Shown piece by piece: positions 25,574-52,815 of a DNA stretch of 53,010 nt (its first letter is position 1; the number at the start of each line of letters is the position of its first letter). The notes under the pieces were generated by a model. That model made no database searches, had not been told where the DNA came from, and saw only the letters and a list, made by a program, of their open reading frames with translations. The position numbers and the translations under genes were made by a program. The stretch is taken from positions 1-53,010 of IMG/VR virus record IMGVR_UViG_3300034631_000008, one strand, 5' to 3'. This DNA is from a virus (taxonomy: Duplodnaviria > Caudoviricetes).

Positions 25574-27391
25574 CTTTCTTCCCGCCGCCCAATCCTCGTT
25601 CACCTCCTCGAATATCTCCGGGCCCAGCACGATTTCGCCCTGGTACGGCTCGATCTCGGCCAACGGGCGCTTGTCGCCGTAGCTGATCGTGATGTGGGGC
25701 TGGTACTCGGGATGATCCCACGTGGCGCCGGCCTCGATGATCTCCCGGTGCCGCCAACGAAGGTCGGACGCGGTGAACAGCAGCACGGTGGCCTCGCCGA
25801 AGCGCTCCATCTGCCTCGGCCCGCCGGCGCCGATCTCCAGCTTGGGCGACCACGATTCCCCGACGGCGAACCAGTCGACCGGCTGCCGGCTATAGATGAT
25901 CGTCACGTGCAGGTCGGGCACGATGTCCGTCATCCCCTGCGACTTCGCCCAAGCGGCAATCTCAGCGGCGTTCAGCACGTCCCTGCGCACATACAGCGTC
26001 CGGGGCGCGGCATCGTTCGCAGCGGCCTGCATGCGGGTCACATTGCCCGGCGCCACCGGCGGCACGACCTCCGGCTCTTCCGCACGCTCGCCGAAGTCAA
26101 TCGCGTCGCCCTCGGCCTCAGCTTCGTCCAGCGCGTTCTCGAAGCCTGGATAGAGCCCGTCCTCGATGATCTGGTTCTGCCGGCCCTTGGCGAGCACACT
26201 GTCGGGCATCACACCGGAGTTGATGTCGATCTGGAACGCCTGCGCCTTCTTCAGCGCGACCTCGGCCTTGTCCTTCTCGCTCATTTGCGAGAGCGGCGAC
26301 CACTCGTAGTAGACCTCCGCCGGCCGCTCGCCGAGCGCAGACCGGATCAGCGCCTCGTCGAGATTGTAGATCGCCGGCTGCAGCTCGAGCTTCTGCATGC
26401 TCTCGATGCGGTCGTGATAGTTCTTCATATCGCTTTCGCCGGTGGCGTTCATGCCGGCGGGCGACTGCCCCAGGAGGCGGGTGGCTGGAATATCGGCCGC
26501 GCCCGAGACGATGATCAGGAACTGCTGCAGGACCTCCGGCAGCTGCGAAAAGCTGATCTGCTTTCGGTCGTAGGTCTCGTTCGCGTCCCGGATCAAGGCC
26601 CGGTTCATCGACTTGCCGACGTTGGCCAGCAGGAAGCGCTCCAGCAGCCGGCTGCGGTACTCCGGATCGGCGACCATCGACATGAAGTCCGGCACGCCGA
26701 ACACGTCGATATTGGCCTCGAACACCAGGCTGGCGATGTTGGCCGCCGTGCTGTCGGCGTTCTTGATCGCGCTGAACACTGCCTGCAGCGAGCTTTCGCC
26801 CCAGCCGCGGTTCGGACCCTGTGCCAGCCAGACGTCCGGGTGAGGCTGCCCGGTGAACACCACCAGCCGCGACGGGTGGATGTTGGCGAACGCCACTCGT
26901 CCCGTGACCTGATAATCCTTCGGCCGCCCGTAGGTCTCGGCCAGAGCGTCCTGATCCAGTTCGCCGGCGATCACCTCTCGGCGCGAGAGGACCGTCAGGT
27001 ATTTCAGCCCGCCCTTGCCCAGTCCGTCCAGGCGCAGCGGCTGATCCGGCGCCTGGTCTGTGCCCATGTAGATCGCCGCGCCGCCCCACAGCCGCGCCTT
27101 GATCCGCGCGTCCAGAAGCTTCTGCCACAGCCCGAGCCGCATCTCCTCGGCTTCGATGGCCTCGATCTGGTCGTTCTCGGCCTGCCAGTCCCGGCCCTTG
27201 CGGATGGAGTCCATCGCCGGGATGTTGACGATCTTCTGCGGCAGCCAGGAGCCCTGGTAGGCGTAGAGCAGCTGCTCGTCGGTCAGGAACGACGGCCCGT
27301 AGTAGGTGCCGGCCGCCTTGTCCCGTGCCGGGTCCCCCATGCCGGAGGTCAGCGCCAGAAGGCTATCCGTCTGAAGCTGAGTTCCGGTCAT
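25568..27391 (-). CDS. Portal protein (DUF1073) fused to Acb1-like 2H phosphodiesterase
   Basis: Portal motifs (Y..SWL..KIV.IPA.D; AADIP.TRLLGQSP.G.NATGESD..NY); C-terminal LHVT and PHIT. Confidence 0.9.
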   Translation of the reverse strand: MTGTQLQTDSLLALTSGMGDPARDKAAGTYYGPSFLTDEQLLYAYQGSWLPQKIVNIPAMDSIRKGRDWQAENDQIEAIEAEEMRLGLWQKLLDARIKARLWGGAAIYMGTDQAPDQPLRLDGLGKGGLKYLTVLSRREVIAGELDQDALAETYGRPKDYQVTGRVAFANIHPSRLVVFTGQPHPDVWLAQGPNRGWGESSLQAVFSAIKNADSTAANIASLVFEANIDVFGVPDFMSMVADPEYRSRLLERFLLANVGKSMNRALIRDANETYDRKQISFSQLPEVLQQFLIIVSGAADIPATRLLGQSPAGMNATGESDMKNYHDRIESMQKLELQPAIYNLDEALIRSALGERPAEVYYEWSPLSQMSEKDKAEVALKKAQAFQIDINSGVMPDSVLAKGRQNQIIEDGLYPGFENALDEAEAEGDAIDFGERAEEPEVVPPVAPGNVTRMQAAANDAAPRTLYVRRDVLNAAEIAAWAKSQGMTDIVPDLHVTIIYSRQPVDWFAVGESWSPKLEIGAGGPRQMERFGEATVLLFTASDLRWRHREIIEAGATWDHPEYQPHITISYGDKRPLAEIEPYQGEIVLGPEIFEEVNEDWAAGRKL

Positions 27392-41574: not shown

Positions 41575-42267
41575 TCAAATCCTTGTGGCGATGATGTCGT
41601 GGATGCTGTCGATCGACGCGATGTTGGCGCGGACCTTCGCCGTCTGCTTTTCGTCGAGGTTCGGGAGGATCGCTTCGAGATCGGCTTTGCCGAGTTCCGC
41701 CGCGTATTCGCTGACGAGCGCCACGAAGTGCATGGCCTTGTTGAAGGCTTCCGGATCGCGGCCCTTGAGCCACGTCTGAGGATCGGGCGCCGGGCGGGCC
41801 TTCCGGCCTTGATCAGCCAGCGTGGTCAGCGTCGGCGGCGTCGGGCTCTCGACCTGCTCGGTGAATTCCGGCTCGGGCAGGCTGGCAATGCGAACAGCCT
41901 GCTTCGTCTGATGCGGCGACATGCCGGCTTGTTCGGCCACCTCGCGCTGTGTCGGCGCGGGAGCAGAAGGGCGGGCGCCCTCCTTTTTGGTCGTGTCGCC
42001 GCCGCGACCATCGAATTGCTGAAGGAGTTCTCCGGCGCGGCGCATCGCGCGGGCCCTGATGCGCGCCGCCATCCGCTCGAGCTCGAGATCTTCAGCCTGC
42101 TTGGCGTAGGATGCGAGAGCGGCGGCCTTGTCTGCCCAGTCCTTGCACTCGTCGACGGAGGCGCAGTTGGTCAGCGCCGTCTTGGCGTTCTCGTAAGAGA
42201 CCGGAAGGCGAGCATTCGAGACATTCGCCGGGAGTTTGGTGGGAGTAGCGGGCGCGATTTCGATCAT
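41575..42267 (-). CDS. Hypothetical phage protein with HTH-like segment
   Basis: DECKDWADKA.ALASYAKQA...RA.RR.GELL; directly after cro. Confidence 0.78.
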   Translation of the reverse strand: MIEIAPATPTKLPANVSNARLPVSYENAKTALTNCASVDECKDWADKAAALASYAKQAEDLELERMAARIRARAMRRAGELLQQFDGRGGDTTKKEGARPSAPAPTQREVAEQAGMSPHQTKQAVRIASLPEPEFTEQVESPTPPTLTTLADQGRKARPAPDPQTWLKGRDPEAFNKAMHFVALVSEYAAELGKADLEAILPNLDEKQTAKVRANIASIDSIHDIIATRI

Positions 42268-42467
42268 GCGGCCACTCCCTCAGCGTTCGGGGTCGGACGT
42301 TGTGCGACCGCCTCAAGAAGCTTCTGCGCGGAGCCGCGAGGGCGGGTGATGCCTTTCTCCCATCTGGAGACATTCGATCGGTCGACGCCGATCTCTGCTG
42401 CCAGCTCTTCTTGGGAGAGGTTCAGGCGCTTGCGGAGCGCCGCGATATCGATTGGTTTCTGATCCAT
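42264..42467 (-). CDS. cro: Cro-like Xre HTH regulator
   Basis: LSQEELA..IGV.RS.VSRWE.G; divergent from repressor. Confidence 0.9.
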   Translation of the reverse strand: MDQKPIDIAALRKRLNLSQEELAAEIGVDRSNVSRWEKGITRPRGSAQKLLEAVAQRPTPNAEGVAA

Positions 42468-42480
42468 GACGATCGCATAT

Positions 42481-42541
42481 GTGCATAACGCACTTATCCT
42501 CGTCAAGTCGAAACGCACATTCGATCCGGTGCAATTTGCAC
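42481..42541. promoter_or_regulatory. OR operators and divergent pR/pRM promoters
   Basis: GTGCATAACGCAC (42481-93), AGTCGAAACGCAC (42506-18), GTGCAATTTGCAC (42529-41); CTTGAC -35 on minus at 42502-07. Confidence 0.8.
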
Positions 42542-42543
42542 GG

Positions 42544-43158
42544 ATGGATTTTGACGACCGCCCAGAGCCCGCGAGAAGGCTGGAAGAAGCGAGGCTGGCA
42601 CGAGGCTTTAAGAGCGCCCGAGCCGCCGCCGACTACTTCGGGTGGAAGTACGACAGCTATGCTCAGCACGAGAGCGGCCTTCGCGGCCTTTCCAGATCGG
42701 CAAAGCGATATGCGAATGCCTACGGTGTGTCCGAAGGCTGGCTGCTGACCGGCGAGGGAAACGACGAGATCACCAACGTGCCTCACGTCTCTTGGGTGAG
42801 CGCAGGCCAACTGAAGAAGTCAGAGGGTGTGACCTCAGCCGAAATCGAACGGTATGTGCCGGTAGCCAATCTGCCTCGGGGCGACTGGATGGCTTTGACC
42901 GTCCGCGGTGACTCGATGGATCGGATTGCGCCCGAGGGTTCGATTATCGTCCTCAACCACGCCGACGACACGCTGCTCAACGATCGCTTCTACGTCTTCT
43001 CGCTGGAAGGCGGAGAAGCGACATTCAAGCGCTACCGCAGCTCTCCCCGCCCCATGCTGCAGCCGTTCTCGACGAACCTCGACCACATGTCGATTCCCGC
43101 CAATGAAGGCGAGTTCTATGTCGTCGGCCGCGTTCGCCGGGTCATCACCGATGTCTGA
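42544..43158 (+). CDS. cI: CI-like repressor (HTH + S24 autopeptidase)
   Basis: N-terminal HTH, SAG cleavage site, GDSM Ser, TFKR Lys; no RBS, likely leaderless. Confidence 0.92.
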   Translation: MDFDDRPEPARRLEEARLARGFKSARAAADYFGWKYDSYAQHESGLRGLSRSAKRYANAYGVSEGWLLTGEGNDEITNVPHVSWVSAGQLKKSEGVTSAEIERYVPVANLPRGDWMALTVRGDSMDRIAPEGSIIVLNHADDTLLNDRFYVFSLEGGEATFKRYRSSPRPMLQPFSTNLDHMSIPANEGEFYVVGRVRRVITDV

Positions 43159-43561: not shown

Positions 43562-44470
43562 GTGAGTCATGTCTTCGGCGGCGAACACACTGAACGGAAG
43601 CTTGACGTCGTCGAAGACTACCTGAAGCGCTACACCAGTGCGTTGAGCACGAAGCCATTCACGCTTTGGTACATCGATGCTTTCGCCGGCACAGGATCGC
43701 GAGATGTCGAGCGAGATGTCGGATTATTTGACGAGACCGACGATCCAACGGTTCGGCAAACATTGGACGGCTCGGCGCGTCGCGCCCTAAAGATAGACCC
43801 TCCGTTTCAACATTTCGTTTTCGTAGAAGAGGACGCCGAGCGCGTCGCCACTTTGGAGAACATCCGCAGCGAGTTTCCTGATCGCGATGTGACGATCAAG
43901 TGCGGAGAAGCCAATGAGGCTCTCGCAGACTTCGATTTCTTGAAGACGTGGTCAAGAGTTAACCCGCTCAATCGAGGCGTCGTATTCCTAGACCCATACG
44001 CGCTGCAAGTCGACTGGGCGACGTTGGTCAGCTTGGCTCAGACGAGGAAGATAGACGTCTGGTATCTCTTCCCCATTCGTGATGTCACCCGGCAGCTGGC
44101 GCACGACATTGATGGCGTCGGTCCGAAATCCGGAAGGCTTGATCGCGTCCTCGGGCACGCGTGGCGGGAGTTGTATGCGCCCCCGCCAGCGAACCAATCA
44201 AGCTTATTCGACGCCCCTGTGATCCCTTCTCACAAACGGATAGCGACGAAAGCAGAGATAGAGGATTGGTTTAGGCGAAGGTTGGAAAGCGAGTTCAGCT
44301 TCGTCGCCGATCCGGTTCCGATCGGCGGTCGCGACGATAGCCCGATATTCTCGCTCTTCCTGGCGATCGGCAACAAGAGCGAGAGAGCGAAGCGGCTGGC
44401 AGGTCAATTTGCCAAAGATGTCAGGCGCCGGCATGAGCAGCGGGCATCTCGTCGTATGTCCGGCCGTTGA
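43562..44470 (+). CDS. tcmP: Three-Cys-motif partner protein (MTase-like)
   Basis: HT..KL..V..YL..Y, YIDAFAGTG, GSA..AL, FLDPY. Confidence 0.9.
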   Translation: MSHVFGGEHTERKLDVVEDYLKRYTSALSTKPFTLWYIDAFAGTGSRDVERDVGLFDETDDPTVRQTLDGSARRALKIDPPFQHFVFVEEDAERVATLENIRSEFPDRDVTIKCGEANEALADFDFLKTWSRVNPLNRGVVFLDPYALQVDWATLVSLAQTRKIDVWYLFPIRDVTRQLAHDIDGVGPKSGRLDRVLGHAWRELYAPPPANQSSLFDAPVIPSHKRIATKAEIEDWFRRRLESEFSFVADPVPIGGRDDSPIFSLFLAIGNKSERAKRLAGQFAKDVRRRHEQRASRRMSGR

Positions 44471-45179
44471 GCATCCGACCGGACGCCTTCTTGTTCCGTC
44501 CGCCCCACTGCTTGAAGAAGAACGCTGTGCGCGCTCCACGACACATGCGCTCAATCTCGTCGACCCATGCAGGATCCATGTGACGCGACTTCGGACCTGA
44601 TTCCCCGCCGACGATCGCCCAATGAATATCTGAAAGGTTCGCCCCTGCGACAGAACCGATGAGCGGCTCGAAAGAGATGAACCGGACCGCTGCCGGCACA
44701 CGGCGCAGATCGTCGATGCGATTGATCACCCGGCCATCCTCGACGCTCGTCCCCAGCCAGACATTTGGCAACACAGCGAGTCCGCTGTTTTGCAGCACGT
44801 CGGCCATCCGATCAGGTCGCTTCGTCAGGATCTGGTAGGTGTGGTGCGGCGTGTTCCGCATGACCGTCCAGACCTCGCCGATGAACTCGACAGGCACGCC
44901 GTCATGGAACAGATCCGACATCGAGTTGACGAAGACCCGGCGCGGCGATCGCCACTTGGCGGGTGCCGCCAGCGCGCCATGATCCAGCGTGATTTTCCCG
45001 GTCCAGACCTTCCGCCCGCCGCTGGTCCGAGTGAGGCCGCGGTACTTCTCCTGCCCCATGGCCTCGAGCCGCGCGGCCATTCGCATCGCGTAGCAGTTCG
45101 TGCATCCGGCTGTCAGCACGGTGCATCCCGCCACCGGATTCCAGGTGGCATCCGTCCATTCAATCGAGGTCTCGGCCAT
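44421..45179 (-). CDS. DUF5131 (phage Gp37/Gp68, radical-SAM-like three-Cys) protein
   Basis: IEWTD.TWNP..GC-x6-C-x2-CYA, FVNSMSDLFH, LTKRP, GGESG, FFFKQWGG. Confidence 0.93.
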   Translation of the reverse strand: MAETSIEWTDATWNPVAGCTVLTAGCTNCYAMRMAARLEAMGQEKYRGLTRTSGGRKVWTGKITLDHGALAAPAKWRSPRRVFVNSMSDLFHDGVPVEFIGEVWTVMRNTPHHTYQILTKRPDRMADVLQNSGLAVLPNVWLGTSVEDGRVINRIDDLRRVPAAVRFISFEPLIGSVAGANLSDIHWAIVGGESGPKSRHMDPAWVDEIERMCRGARTAFFFKQWGGRNKKASGRMLNGRTYDEMPAAHAGA

Positions 45180-45255: not shown

Positions 45256-45640
45256 CAACCTTCAGGAGTCTTGGCGTTCTTGGTCCCTGAAGGTTGCGAG
45301 AGGAGGGTTCCGGAGCCAAAGACCCCCCTACCCCCACAGGCCGAAGCCAGCGAAGGTAGGGAGGCCATGGCTGGTCCTGAAGGCCGGAGCCGGATGGGAC
45401 ACTACGCCAGGACGCCTCTCGGCAATCCGTCCTCAGTTTCCGGTCGCACCGTAGGATGATCTAACCCCCGCGCGTGGCGGCTGTACCGGCAGACCCGTTG
45501 CAGAGCCCGTCGCCGCCTTCACCCTTCGAGGTCGCGCATAGACTTGCCTTGCGAGGCAAGATCATTTAACCGAAATCCTGTTCACAGACTTCAGCATGCG
45601 AGACGCGAAGGCCCCGGTTCACCGCCGGGGCTTTTCGCGT
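45256..45640 (-). ncRNA. Candidate structured RNA or long leader upstream of DUF5131
   Basis: Many helices favouring minus strand (G-U pairs), cUUCGg and GAGA tetraloops, upstream promoter. Confidence 0.6.
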
Positions 45641-45642
45641 TC
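45603..45642 (+). terminator. Long hairpin, likely terminator insulating pL
   Basis: ACGCGAAGGCCCCGG-N7-CCGGGGCTTTTCGCGT. Confidence 0.6.
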
Positions 45643-45718
45643 TAGGCCGTGCTCCTGTTCGCCGTCAACAAAAATGTGCGTAACGCACTTGACGTGATGT
45701 GCGTAACGCACGCATATT
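45640..45718. promoter_or_regulatory. OL operators with pL and a divergent promoter
   Basis: GTGCGTAACGCAC at 45676-88 and 45699-711 flanking TTGACG (45689-94) with GCATAT at N17; minus TTGACG (45663-68)-N17-CTAGAA. Confidence 0.8.
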
Positions 45719-45757: not shown

Positions 45758-46003
45758 ATGCTGGACACGCCCGAAGCAGCAATCAGCAGACGCGGTTTTC
45801 TTGGCGGCATCGCAGCCACCGTCACCGCAGCCTTCATCCCGGTCATGTCCGGCAAGGCCGACGCCGCTGAGGTGAGTGAGCCGAAGCACCGGAAGCTTCC
45901 CGATGGCTGGGAACATGTCGGCTCGGGCCGCTACCGCTTCACCGCATTCACGTCGACCGAGACCGTGGTGTGGGCAGAAACGCCCGCAATCGCCGCCGCC
46001 TGA
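45758..46003 (+). CDS. Small protein with twin-arginine signal
   Basis: SRRGFL, hydrophobic core, ADA site; GGAG RBS. Confidence 0.7.
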   Translation: MLDTPEAAISRRGFLGGIAATVTAAFIPVMSGKADAAEVSEPKHRKLPDGWEHVGSGRYRFTAFTSTETVVWAETPAIAAA

Positions 46004-47175: not shown

Positions 47176-47559
47176 ATGACCAACCGACTCTCCGACGCCA
47201 CGCTGTACGCCCTAGCCGATCCTGTTGAAGTCGAAGGCTACGACGCCCCGCTTCAGCCGTTCACTGCGGCTCGTGCCCGACTGGACGATTTCGACGTGAT
47301 CCGCGAGACGGCCCGCGCCCTCAAGCTGCCGCCGCTCAATGCCCACCAGGAAGACGCGATCATCGAAGCTGTCGGGCCTGCCGATGGCGTTGACGATGAT
47401 GTCCGGCGCGTTCGGATCGTTCGCGAAACCCTCGCCGAGTTCGGCGTCGATACCGACCGCTGCACCGCCGTCTATTCCAAGGTCTACGGCCGGTGCAAGC
47501 GCATCGCGATGGACGTGGACCGGGCGCACCGGGGCGCGTTCTCGGAGGCGAGGGTATGA
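47176..47559 (+). CDS. Hypothetical protein
   Basis: GAGG RBS; ATGA overlap with next gene. Confidence 0.7.
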   Translation: MTNRLSDATLYALADPVEVEGYDAPLQPFTAARARLDDFDVIRETARALKLPPLNAHQEDAIIEAVGPADGVDDDVRRVRIVRETLAEFGVDTDRCTAVYSKVYGRCKRIAMDVDRAHRGAFSEARV

Positions 47560-48506
47560 CGGCGGAACAGGTCTGGACCGGCAAGCCAATCAGCAAGCCC
47601 GGCATCTATCGGGGCATCGGATTGTCCGAATACCACGAGAAGGCGGACCTGTTCGACGGCCCGTCGATCTCCAAGAGCTCGCTGAAGCACCTTCTGCCGT
47701 CGCATGGCGGCAGCCCGAAAGCCTTCTGGGGCCGGTGGCGGCACAACCCCGAGCACATCGCACAGAAGTCGACCGATGCGCTGAATTTCGGCAAGGCGGC
47801 GCACTGCCTGCTGCTCGGCGACGAGGTCTTCGACGACAGCTTCGTCATCCGCCCGGACGAGTATCCGGACGCGAAGACGGGCGAGATGAAGCCGTGGAAC
47901 GGCAACGCCGGTTGGTGCAAGGGCTGGCTCGCAGATCATGCGGGTAAGACGATCGTCACCGCCGACCAGATGACCATGATCCGCAAGATGCGGGACGACG
48001 CCGCGCGCTATCCGCTGGTGCAACAAGGCCTGCTCAATGGCGCCGTCGAGCGCACGATGGCCTGCAAGGATTCTGAGACCGGCATCTGGCTGAAGGTCCG
48101 GCCCGACGTCATCCCGGCGGCCGACGGTGTCTATGCGGACCTCAAGACCACGGCCGACCTGAGCGAGGACTTCCTCGAGCGCCAGGCTTTCGACGCCTGC
48201 TACTACCTGCAGGGCGCGATGATCCGCATGGTGTGCCGAGAGCTCAAGCTGCCGTTCACGACCTTCGCCCTGCTCTACGTCCTGAAGGACGAGATCCCCG
48301 ATACCGCGCACGTTGAACTGTCGGAGCACGAGCTCGACCGCGGCGAGCGGGAAATCCGCTGGGCTCTGACCACGATCCGCAAGTGCCTCGACGCTGGCGA
48401 ATGGCCCGGCGCGCGGCCGTTCAAGGGCGGCGAGCAACACCTGCAGCTCAAAAATTGGCACAAGACCAAGATCGACGACTTCCTCGAAATGGAGCAGGCA
48501 GCATGA
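47556..48506 (+). CDS. recE: RecE-like exonuclease VIII (PD-(D/E)XK)
   Basis: YH.....ISKS.LK, FG.A.H..LL, K.RPD, DLKT, Y.LQ. Confidence 0.88.
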   Translation: MTAEQVWTGKPISKPGIYRGIGLSEYHEKADLFDGPSISKSSLKHLLPSHGGSPKAFWGRWRHNPEHIAQKSTDALNFGKAAHCLLLGDEVFDDSFVIRPDEYPDAKTGEMKPWNGNAGWCKGWLADHAGKTIVTADQMTMIRKMRDDAARYPLVQQGLLNGAVERTMACKDSETGIWLKVRPDVIPAADGVYADLKTTADLSEDFLERQAFDACYYLQGAMIRMVCRELKLPFTTFALLYVLKDEIPDTAHVELSEHELDRGEREIRWALTTIRKCLDAGEWPGARPFKGGEQHLQLKNWHKTKIDDFLEMEQAA

Positions 48507-49771
48507 ACCAGATCGCCCCCATTGATCGCCTGCCGCAGGCCTTCCGTGACGACGTGCACGCGATGGAGCCGCAGTTCGTCGCCGCGCTCCCGCCTCAGAT
48601 CCCCGTCGAGCGCTTCATGCGCGTCGTGATGACCGCGGTGAACAGCGACCCGGACCTTCTCCGCGCCGACAAGCACAGCTTGTTCGAAGCCGCCGTCAAG
48701 GCAGCGCAGGACGGCCTCCTGCCCGACAAGCGAGACGGCGCCTTCGTCATCTTCTCCGGCAAGGTCCAGTGGATGCCCATGGTTGGCGGCATCCTGAAGA
48801 AGGTGCGCAACTCCGGCGAGTTGAAGAGCATCGCCGCGCACGTCGTCTACTCCGGCGACCAGTTCACCTACGAGCTCGGCGACGAGGAGCGGATCGAGCA
48901 TCGCCCCAACCTTTTCGGCGATCGCGGCGAGCCCATCGCCGTCTATGCCGTGGCGCACACCAAGGACGGCGGCATCTATCGCGAGATCATGTCGACGAAG
49001 GATGTCGAAAAGGTTCGGTCGGTCTCGAAAGCGAGGAACGGCGGGCCTTGGAAGGAGTGGTGGGACGAGATGGCCCGGAAGACGGTCATCCGCCGGCTCG
49101 CCAAGCGGCTTCCGATGTCCAGCGACCTCGACGACATCATCCGCCGCGACGACGAGATGTACGACCTGAACCGCCGGGAAGCCGACGTCGAGCGGCTACC
49201 GTTGTCGGCGCGCCTCGCCGCATCGGCGCAGCACAGCATCACGGATGCGACGGAGGGCTTCAGGCACTCGGTCATCGACGGAGAGCTTCGCGGCGCTACT
49301 GAGGCTCCTGCGGGCGAGAATGGCGCGGATGAAGGCGAACAGCCGGGCCAGCAGGAGGATGTGAGCGAGGTTGAAGTCGCGCAGACGAGCCGAGAGAGCG
49401 AGACTCCCGTCGCGCCGCCGGCTGACGAGAGCGAGACCGGCGACGTTGACCCCGCCGACGAGCGCGAGGAGCCGACCGTCTCGGAAGCCGACCGCAAAAC
49501 TCTGGCACGGTACGCGCAGGACATGTTTGGCAAGGCGATCGGGGAAGGCATCCCAGAGAAGCGCGAGGCCGACATCCTGAAGGGATCGAAGGTCTGGGCC
49601 GCAGACATCGGTAAGATGTCCGACGAGGCGAAGGAGATGGCCCGCGCGATCATGCGGTCAGCGAAGGCCGTGAACTCGGGTGACACGAGCGTCGAGAGTG
49701 CGGCCGATTATTTCGCGGGCGTTCTCGACGTGCCGATGGAGTCGATCATGCCGGCGCGGGATGTCGCGTGA
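48503..49771 (+). CDS. recT: RecT recombinase with long C-terminal extension
   Basis: LP..I..ERF.R, AA..GL.PD, PW..W.DEMA.KTV.RRL.K.LP.S. Confidence 0.9.
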   Translation: MNQIAPIDRLPQAFRDDVHAMEPQFVAALPPQIPVERFMRVVMTAVNSDPDLLRADKHSLFEAAVKAAQDGLLPDKRDGAFVIFSGKVQWMPMVGGILKKVRNSGELKSIAAHVVYSGDQFTYELGDEERIEHRPNLFGDRGEPIAVYAVAHTKDGGIYREIMSTKDVEKVRSVSKARNGGPWKEWWDEMARKTVIRRLAKRLPMSSDLDDIIRRDDEMYDLNRREADVERLPLSARLAASAQHSITDATEGFRHSVIDGELRGATEAPAGENGADEGEQPGQQEDVSEVEVAQTSRESETPVAPPADESETGDVDPADEREEPTVSEADRKTLARYAQDMFGKAIGEGIPEKREADILKGSKVWAADIGKMSDEAKEMARAIMRSAKAVNSGDTSVESAADYFAGVLDVPMESIMPARDVA

Positions 49772-51860: not shown

Positions 51861-52741
51861 CATTCCGCCAGGCTGCGGCGACCTACGTCACACTGCACCC
51901 GAACGCCCGGTTCATAGGCCCGCTGCTGCGCTACTTCGGCGAGATCCTGGTCGCAGACATTACCAACGCCGAGATGCGCCGCGCCGCGAACTCCATCTAT
52001 CCGAAGGCGGCCCCGGCCACGATCCGGCGGCAGCTCTACACCCCGGTCAAGGCGATCCTGAACCTCGCCGCCGAGGACGATCTCTGCACCGTCCCGAAGA
52101 TGCGCGCGCCCGCCGGCGGCAATAAGCGCACCGTGTTCTTCCTGCCCGAGCAGGCCAACGCGCTGATCACCGAACTCGGCCGCGATCCCAACGGTTTCCT
52201 CGCCCCGATGGTGACGTTCCTGTTCGGCCAGGGCTGCCGGATGAGCGAGGCGATCACGCTGGACGGGATGGACGTCTCGCTCGAGCATCGCTTCGCCATC
52301 CTGCGGGACACGAAGAACGGCGAGGAACGGCGCGTCTCGCTGATCCCGCGCGTCGTGGCCGCGCTGTCGACCCTTCCGACGATCGGCCAGCCAGGCCCGG
52401 TGTTCCGCCGCAGCGATGGTCTCGGCTTCCGCTATGGCAAGGCGAGCGGCGGGCAGATCAAGAAGGCCTTCGACCGCGCCCTGAAACCTGCTGAGCTCGA
52501 CCCTTCCCGCTACACCCCGCACGTCTGCCGGCACTCGTGGGCAACCTGGTTTCATGCCCAAACGAAGGACGTTCGCCGACTGCAGGACGAAGGCGGGTGG
52601 AAGTCGGGGGAATGGCAGCGCTACACGAAAATCGGCACGCCGACGCTAGGGACCGACGCGCTGCGCAAGGGCTGGGATTTCCGGGAAGTGGGGGAAAATC
52701 GGGGGAATGGCGAGGTCGAGGCATATGCTTCAAGTGCTTAG
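51689..52741 (+). CDS. int: Tyrosine integrase
   Basis: GCRMSE, TKNG, HVCRH, GGW, RY catalytic set; ends 9 bp before att. Confidence 0.95.
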   Translation: MLEPKRRPKSPYWVLRGTIDGKRVEVSRKWTTAAAARRALPGVIAELSADPVGEQGLTFRQAAATYVTLHPNARFIGPLLRYFGEILVADITNAEMRRAANSIYPKAAPATIRRQLYTPVKAILNLAAEDDLCTVPKMRAPAGGNKRTVFFLPEQANALITELGRDPNGFLAPMVTFLFGQGCRMSEAITLDGMDVSLEHRFAILRDTKNGEERRVSLIPRVVAALSTLPTIGQPGPVFRRSDGLGFRYGKASGGQIKKAFDRALKPAELDPSRYTPHVCRHSWATWFHAQTKDVRRLQDEGGWKSGEWQRYTKIGTPTLGTDALRKGWDFREVGENRGNGEVEAYASSA

Positions 52742-52750
52742 CACCAGTTC

Positions 52751-52815
52751 CGCTCCCCTGCTAAGGGAGTATACCAGAGATGGTATCGAGGGTTCGAATC
52801 CCTTCCTCTCCGCCA
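52751..52815 (+). repeat. att core, right copy
   Basis: Identical to 61-125; lacks tRNA 5' part. Confidence 0.96.

Follow-up and report, generated by a model that had tools for sequence, protein, structure and literature searches.

It is rare for a large structured RNA to combine pseudoknots with strong covariation, and the majority of such RNAs have proved to be riboswitches, ribozymes or cores of ribonucleoproteins. The CI RNA of phage P4 (seqA, seqB and seqC) and the c4 RNA of P1/P7 (a1b1 and a2b2) are RNAs of about 70 nt in which an internal element is complementary to flanking repeats. The put antitermination RNAs of phage HK022, also about 70 nt long, are made of two stem-loops and follow both early promoters. 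Among alphaproteobacterial small RNAs, alpha-r14/NfeR1 and AbcR contain repeated anti-Shine-Dalgarno motifs.

The RNA described here belongs to an undescribed family of structured RNAs of about 230 nt that temperate phages, most of them from Rhizobiales-type hosts, carry in their immunity region. It was analyzed in a stretch of 53,010 nucleotides of phage DNA, hereafter the window, where it occupies positions 45286-45516 on the minus strand. It is non-coding and has a compact, pseudoknotted 5′ domain. Judging from the sequence, the RNA follows directly on a predicted sigma-70-like promoter and heads a short putative transcription unit, whose cargo varies (DUF5131 in the window) and which runs toward the 3′ end of the repressor gene.

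The RNA resembles riboswitch-type leaders (kinetic or Rho-dependent platforms) in its conserved, pseudoknotted 5′ domain of the sensing type directly after the candidate promoter, in a possible competition of a segment of this domain (S1) and a downstream strand (S3) for one partner (S2), and in a C-rich tail ahead of the putatively regulated gene. However, no Rfam riboswitch matches it, the genes downstream of it are mutually unrelated, some copies may be without a downstream ORF, and its direct repeat A/A′ has no riboswitch counterpart. Like the P4 CI and P1 c4 RNAs, it appears to lead a transcription unit of the immunity region, and its strand Y-S2 is complementary to direct repeats on either side, repeats and element changing together between phages. 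It differs from them in its size, which is about threefold greater, in an unrelated 5′ domain that is conserved, in the lack of a match to the C4 covariance model, and in its Rhizobiales-type rather than enteric hosts. With HK022 put it shares the arrangement of a cis structured RNA just past a phage promoter and before variable genes, but it is about 230 nt long and has one confident copy, the second match having an E value of 0.12. As in alpha-r14/NfeR1 and AbcR, which come from the same host group, C/U-rich motifs occur in the RNA more than once; in contrast to these small RNAs, whose models are in Rfam and gave no match, it is larger, prophage-borne and without a defined terminator.

Prophage setting of the RNA

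The window is a prophage, bounded by a tRNA-Ser(GCU) gene (36-125) and a partial copy of the 3′ half of this tRNA (52709-52812), as identified by covariance-model search and ARAGORN. The two look like attL and attR of a prophage of about 52.6 kb integrated in tRNA-Ser. The RNA lies in a gap of 578 bp between the DUF5131 gene on one side (44421-45179, minus strand; Pfam PF07505, E 6.9e-95) and the plus-strand early operon on the other, which starts at 45758 and is divergent from the RNA. This operon includes an exonuclease VIII-like gene (47493-48506) and recT (48383-49771), both on the plus strand. The DUF5131 gene is the downstream cargo of the RNA in the window phage. It lies on the same strand, with its start codon 103 nt past the RNA core, as expected from the preliminary description, in which the RNA points toward DUF5131.

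A Cro-like HTH gene (42264-42518, minus), a CI-like S24 repressor gene (42466-43158, plus) and a gene for a three-Cys-motif partner protein, TcmP (43562-44470, plus; NCBIfam E 1.5e-48), lie beyond DUF5131. TcmP is the usual partner of DUF5131, and the two form a known gene pair. TcmP-like genes were found alongside the RNA in six loci. In the window, the TcmP and DUF5131 genes converge with an overlap of 50 bp, which would make their transcripts antisense to each other. The first gene of the early operon (45758-46003, plus) encodes a protein of 81 aa with a twin-arginine-like N-terminus (RRGFLGG), for which Pfam and PHROG gave no match.

Relatives, hosts and known RNA families

Scanning for exact or degenerate motifs, twice in viral contigs and once in genome contigs, yielded 232 loci; the matches of genome contigs to a 17-mer were mostly chance matches inside genes. 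An nhmmer profile built from the first alignment identified 94 copies in 233 collected sequences (E up to 1e-5), of which 91 could be extracted whole and 85 of these were distinct. Most family members are Rhizobiales-type prophages, and the named hosts are Rhizobium, Shinella, Aquamicrobium, Phyllobacterium and Pseudorhizobium, including strains of Shinella kummerowiae (L053), Phyllobacterium leguminum (L065) and Rhizobium leguminosarum (L049 and L067). There was no match among 72,556 plasmid records. When 50,697 phage records were searched by blastn, the central 205 nt were found at 75% identity in two records only, OM868082.1 and PP438429.1, both deposited as Synechococcus phages. Neither record annotates the match, which in both precedes a DUF5131 gene by a short distance, the product of which is 72% identical to that of the window. 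These two phages also carry a RecT module, and all other members come from Rhizobiales-type hosts; the assignment to Synechococcus may be questionable, or the module may have been transferred recently.

A covariance model of the 5′ domain, R1, scored 85.8 bits (E 7e-19) on the window and gave this one confident match in the 53-kb prophage. A second match at 25690-25798 on the plus strand (12.9 bits, E 0.12) is probably due to chance. R1 found one copy per genome in all five source genomes and was positive in 3 of 151 genomes sampled evenly from the same order, a sporadic occurrence that fits a prophage-borne element. The alignment and the covariance model are ready for the annotation of related prophages.

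A search of Rfam 15 (4227 models), one of the checks proposed in the preliminary description, showed that the RNA is absent from this library: only tRNAs reached the gathering threshold in the window, and the best sub-threshold match of the interval at E up to 10 was COG2908, with 17.2 bits against 58.7. Nine member loci contained one tRNA and nothing else known to Rfam, and the best match of one of the relatives, L013, reached 16.9 bits against 90. ARAGORN reported tRNA-Ser only and nothing in the interval. Within the limited literature collection searched for structured or noncoding prophage RNAs, immunity regions, Rhizobiales and DUF5131, the RNA is undescribed; the prophage passages of the Minerva preprint (10.64898/2026.09.22.753630) deal with UG27 reverse-transcriptase systems and not with this RNA. 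As to other kinds of element, a T-box-like specifier, an integron-like cassette site, translational bypass and a put-like antiterminator were dropped by eye, and template jumping for a reverse transcriptase was dropped as there is no reverse transcriptase nearby.

Non-coding status and 5′ domain

The ORFs that overlap the core in 31 loci, which were grouped solely through DNA conservation, lie in all three frames and have unrelated starts and stops. The interval is therefore non-coding, protein coding is ruled out, and the earlier statement that it holds no credible CDS stands. As had also been stated, folding favors the minus strand (z -4.0, compared with -2.9 for the plus strand). In the 5′ domain, G-U dominates some paired positions, in 51, 45 and 30 of 55 sequences, respectively. 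On the opposite strand these would be A-C mismatches, and the minus strand of the window is thus the sense strand.

The structure model was obtained with RNAalifold, refined by eye and tested by pair counts. With 38 sequences, RNAalifold predicted 50 pairs, 19 of them with compensatory changes. According to the R1 score and the pair counts, the conserved 5′ domain extends over 45405-45519 on the minus strand. It is composed of P1 (45516-45512 with 45481-45477), the T-loop-like hairpin P1a with a UGCAAnU loop, P2/P2a (45475-45445), a single isolated long-range pair, the hairpin P3 with a GAGA (GNRA) tetraloop (45433-45409), and a pseudoknot between CCGG at 45490-45487 and CCGG at 45443-45440, which has the form CAGG/CCUG in the family. 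The pseudoknot helix was paired in 96.8% of cases in the 5′-domain alignment, with exchanges among UA, AU and CG. The isolated long-range pair was intact in all 55 sequences, as GC in 23, UA in 20 and CG in 12.

In the 5′ domain (55 sequences), 93.0% of cells were paired, compared with 81.3% in shuffles, and the covariation score was 0.350, compared with 0.137; none of 500 shuffles reached either value, slid controls scored 0.090 or less, and 16 of 30 pairs showed changes on both sides. For the full model (74 sequences), the respective values were 82.6% against 74.3% and 0.269 against 0.152, again with no equal among 500 shuffles and with slid controls at 0.143 or less. The scores of P3 to P5 are lower partly because MAFFT aligns their variable tips poorly. 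Covariation among homologues, which had been named as a check, is thus above shuffles and slid controls, and the G-U pairs fix the strand of the structured RNA as minus.

Two of the helices first read from the single sequence lie in this domain. The AGGAC/GTCCT stem around GCC-GAGA-GGC (45409-45433) is present and corresponds to P3. The closure of a multiloop by GCGCG/CGCGC is lost in relatives, where the conserved helix is P2 (GCGC/GUGC, within 45445-45475). A third, CTTGCCT/AGGCAAG (45543-45560), exists in the window, on the upstream side of the conserved core, but relatives do not keep it.

With its pseudoknot, T-loop-like hairpin, GNRA tetraloop and invariably paired isolated base pair, the 5′ domain could be the tertiary-folded core of a ribonucleoprotein scaffold or a ribozyme, and A/A′, which are identical to each other and have no Watson-Crick partner in cis, could be two recognition or cleavage sites of a co-evolving partner. 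We consider this improbable: no protein gene adjoins the RNA in a conserved manner, the recurrent neighbors being only CI-like and exonuclease-like genes, and no known ribozyme model matches, the best being twister-sister with 13.7 bits against a gathering score of 34.

Promoter and operators

A candidate promoter of the RNA was read from the sequence at 45640-45668 on the minus strand, with TTGACG (45668-45663), a spacer of 17 nt and CTAGAA (45645-45640). It was missed by a consensus promoter scan, and the transcription start is a predicted one. In many loci, a promoter of the form TTGACG/TTGACA, N16-18 and a TATGTC-like hexamer ends 11-15 nt before P1 and is flanked by operator-like palindromes. 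A subset of loci, to which the window belongs, shows TTGACG-N17-CAAAAG/CTAGAA in its place, with a GC-rich 5′ hairpin after it. In the window this hairpin, GGCCCCGG / CCGGGGC, adjoins the promoter at 45604-45639; the same layout, a promoter and then the 5′ hairpin AAAAGCCCCGG...CCGGGGC, was found in L017, L023, L053, L044 and L005. The preliminary description had given the RNA its own promoter, back-to-back with an operator/pL region, and this agrees with the sequence of the window.

On the minus strand, the hairpin would be the 5′-terminal hairpin of the putative transcript. Read on the plus strand, with TTTTCG after it, the hairpin has the look of an intrinsic terminator. It is the sole good terminator-like hairpin on the plus strand past the cI-TcmP genes, 1.1 kb beyond TcmP, and it stands upstream of the RNA core. 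Plus-strand transcripts would traverse DUF5131 and the entire RNA in antisense before they end there.

Two copies of the operator-like palindrome GTGCGTAACGCAC are located at 45676-45688 and 45699-45711, overlapping a plus-strand promoter, TTGACG-N18-CATATT, at 45689-45718. The nearer copy ends 8 bp from the -35 element of the RNA promoter. The two palindromes are likely operators common to both divergent promoters.

The 3′ half and the direct repeats

All elements of the 3′ half are given for the minus strand. Element X (CUGGC, about 45405-45410) lies immediately 5′ of the hairpin P4 (45375-45403; GUCC...GGAC with an inner GGC-UCCG-GCC), which carries element A (GGCCUUCAG). P4 is followed by the long hairpin P5 (45313-45374), in which strand Y-S2 (GCCAUGGCCUCCCUACC) pairs with strand S3-Z (GGUAGGGGGGUCUUUGGC). 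The C/U-rich 3′ tail (45286-45312) consists of seg2 (GGAACCCUCCUCUCGCAA) and then element A′ (CAACCUUCAGG), a direct repeat of A. This tail is conserved and is unpaired in the stable fold. In the window, a 3′ arm, CCUGAAGGUUG (45256-45266), pairs with A′ in a stem of 11 bp. The G-U-containing helix with a GGC-UUCG-GCC tip noticed at 45321-45366 is the core of the longer conserved hairpin P5. The 11-bp stem noticed at 45256-45296 is present as well, but only its 5′ arm (A′, 45286-45296) is kept in relatives, the 3′ arm being specific to the window.

The G5-UA-G6 tract in P5 had suggested a replication primer RNA that forms an R-loop, like ColE1 RNA II. The tract is present and conserved, and a DnaB gene follows the RNA in one locus, L190. 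However, the tract is the 3′ strand of the covarying P5 and is paired with a C-rich strand, the sequence downstream of the RNA differs between loci without relationship and keeps nothing origin-like, and the RNA lies between the early recombination genes and cI, outside any replication module. A primer function is therefore highly improbable.

Three pairs of segments, S1/S3, X/Z and A/A′, change together as identical copies rather than as complements. S1 is the triplet after GCGCGGG in the loop of P2a, and S3 is the triplet after the G-run of P5. The two triplets were the same in 81 of 83 sequences, with seven matching states (AAG, GGU, GAG, UGU, GCU, AAU and AGU); of the two exceptions, one (L210, AAC) arose because the search pattern was out of register. 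S1 and S3 are each complementary to S2, the 5′ strand of P5. Similarly, Y is complementary both to X, which follows P3, and to Z, which follows S3, and the forms of X/Z that vary with Y, as read from the alignments, are UGGC, UAGC, UGAC, UUGC, UGCC and CCCGG. Since S1/X and S3/Z both match Y-S2, they are alternative partners for that single strand.

We tentatively favor, at somewhat less than an even chance, a cis-acting conformational switch, in which the RNA would be the leader and portable head of a short unit in the immunity region. It is preferred because of the position right after the promoter, the 5′ domain of the sensing type, the competing helices and the C/U-rich tail that is either free or sequestered. 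In such a switch, Y-S2 would pair either with S1, inside the 5′ domain, and X, in a form able to arise first during transcription, or with the later-made S3-Z to give the stable hairpin P5. The form that persists would be set by the locking of the 5′ domain through a ligand or a factor. Once P5 has formed, the C/U-rich tail (CCCUCCCUC...CCUUCA) would be free to act as an anti-Shine-Dalgarno element or a Rho loading site. In the other form, the freed G-rich S3 would sequester the tail. The outcome would determine the expression of the downstream gene and the reach of antisense transcription toward cI.

The alternative helices S1:S2 and X:Y were paired in 77.4% of cases, compared with 72.3% in shuffles, and none of 500 shuffles equaled the observed value. 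Against the cis-acting switch, a control slid by -1 paired as well (80.3%), because of the G runs. In addition, when the two folds were forced computationally in 12 sequences, the alternative fold was between about equal (-0.6) and 20 kcal/mol less stable than the P5 fold and so could count kinetically only. The computed alternative fold did show the freed G-rich S3 paired with the C-rich tail. Also weighing against the switch are the lack of an intrinsic terminator 3′ of the RNA in the loci examined, and A/A′, which covary with no complementary partner in cis and for which the model gives no account.

A and A′ lie about 90 nt apart and had at least 6 nt in common in 78 of 85 sequences. There are at least a dozen variants, including CCUUCAG, GGUUCAA, GUACAG, UCGACA, CCGUCA, GAUCAA, GGGUCAG, GUUCUU, GUUCCAU and GGUUGAA. 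Searches for a partner site in cis (W) gave nothing consistent, whether for full 8-mer complements up to 350 nt away on either side (G-U pairs included), for exact complements over whole loci or for column-mapped 6-mer complements. Duplexes of A with the 5′ UTR of the divergent early gene, compared by medians only, were not separable between cognate and foreign pairs (-18.9 vs -18.45), and the own A paired better in 44 of 76 cases only.

Such a pair of elements is also what a trans-acting prophage small RNA for lysogenic conversion might carry. CCCUCCCUC and CCUUCA, which occurs twice, would then be anti-Shine-Dalgarno seeds for host or phage mRNAs, and A/A′ would be one seed in two copies. 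The conserved 3′ tail that is unpaired in the stable fold, the co-change of A and A′ as expected of repeated seeds, the single copy in each of the source genomes and the sporadic, prophage-borne occurrence in the order sampled are in line with this function. We nevertheless find it quite unlikely, as no Rho-independent terminator sets the 3′ end, the divergent 5′ UTRs contained no cognate target, and seed pairing does not need an elaborate 5′ domain.

Genes around the RNA in related loci

In at least 42 of 92 distinct loci a CI-like gene lies downstream on the opposite strand, always convergent, and in at least 24 of 92 an exonuclease VIII-like gene lies upstream; both counts are minima, many loci being incomplete. 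The proposal that the RNA is CI-linked is thus upheld as regards position and goes no further than position. Of the 94 copies, 11 have a DUF5131 gene on the same strand no more than 400 nt downstream, and 13 have one no more than 800 nt downstream. This count, the result of a co-occurrence check set out in the preliminary description, does not agree with a leader specific to DUF5131, as other genes follow the RNA elsewhere: a D12 methyltransferase, another methyltransferase, HNH endonucleases, a DnaB helicase and small ORFs. In many loci, the start codons of these unrelated ORFs are 35-67 nt past the core, in a purine-rich stretch. The variation of the downstream genes indicates that the RNA is portable. 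At least one locus, L010, has no ORF between the RNA and a convergent terminator; the RNA may act alone there, a further point against the cis-acting switch.

The gene order bears on another explanation, by analogy with P4 CI and P1 c4, namely an immunity or anti-immunity RNA in which Y-S2 is complementary to the repeats S1/X and S3/Z. A resident RNA, possibly after processing, would act in trans by pairing with the leader of a homologous phage as this leader is transcribed, and alter its fate, and the diverse variants of S and of X/Y/Z would be specificity types. The location in the immunity region next to the convergent CI-like and upstream exonuclease VIII-like genes, the operator-like palindromes that flank the promoter, the three-way covariation with many discrete states, the solitary copy in L010 and a layout of repeat, element and repeat as in seqA, seqB and seqC of P4 all speak for it. 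On the other hand, the C4 antisense family gave no match at E up to 10 in the window or up to 5 in L013, nor did any other Rfam family, the RNA has about 230 nt and a large conserved 5′ domain against the roughly 70 nt of the P4/P1 RNAs, and this most conserved part has no role in the model. We regard this explanation as rather unlikely.

The cis-acting conformational switch, which remains our preferred reading, can be extended to a more speculative proposal that we consider possible, though on balance unlikely: a phage sensor RNA for the decision between lysogeny and lysis. By a two-state strand exchange, the 5′ domain would gate antisense transcription into the repressor gene as well as the expression of accessory DNA-modification or defence genes; S1/S3, X/Z and A/A′ would be the moving parts, and A/A′ would be read by a co-evolving partner. 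If true, the RNA would represent a new regulatory class, whose architecture has been described neither for riboswitches nor for the P4/P1 immunity RNAs. The RNA is confined to temperate phages and is located where decisions between lysis and lysogeny are wired, between an early recombination operon and a repressor gene and beside operator-like sites. It precedes a slot that gathers DNA-modification genes, such as the DUF5131/TcmP pair, methyltransferases and HNH endonucleases. That direct repeats covary is a clear mark, open to testing, of either alternative pairing or a common partner. For work on RNA-based control, the family provides a new and tractable model in phages that infect nitrogen-fixing and related alphaproteobacteria.

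Many loci (L018, L013, L017 and L023 among them), but not the window, contain another conserved non-coding element, CAGATCGGC-N3-7-GGCTTCTTCGTG, on the upstream side of the RNA promoter. Read on the opposite strand, this element belongs to the 5′ UTR of the divergent early gene, whose start codon is 15-25 nt away.
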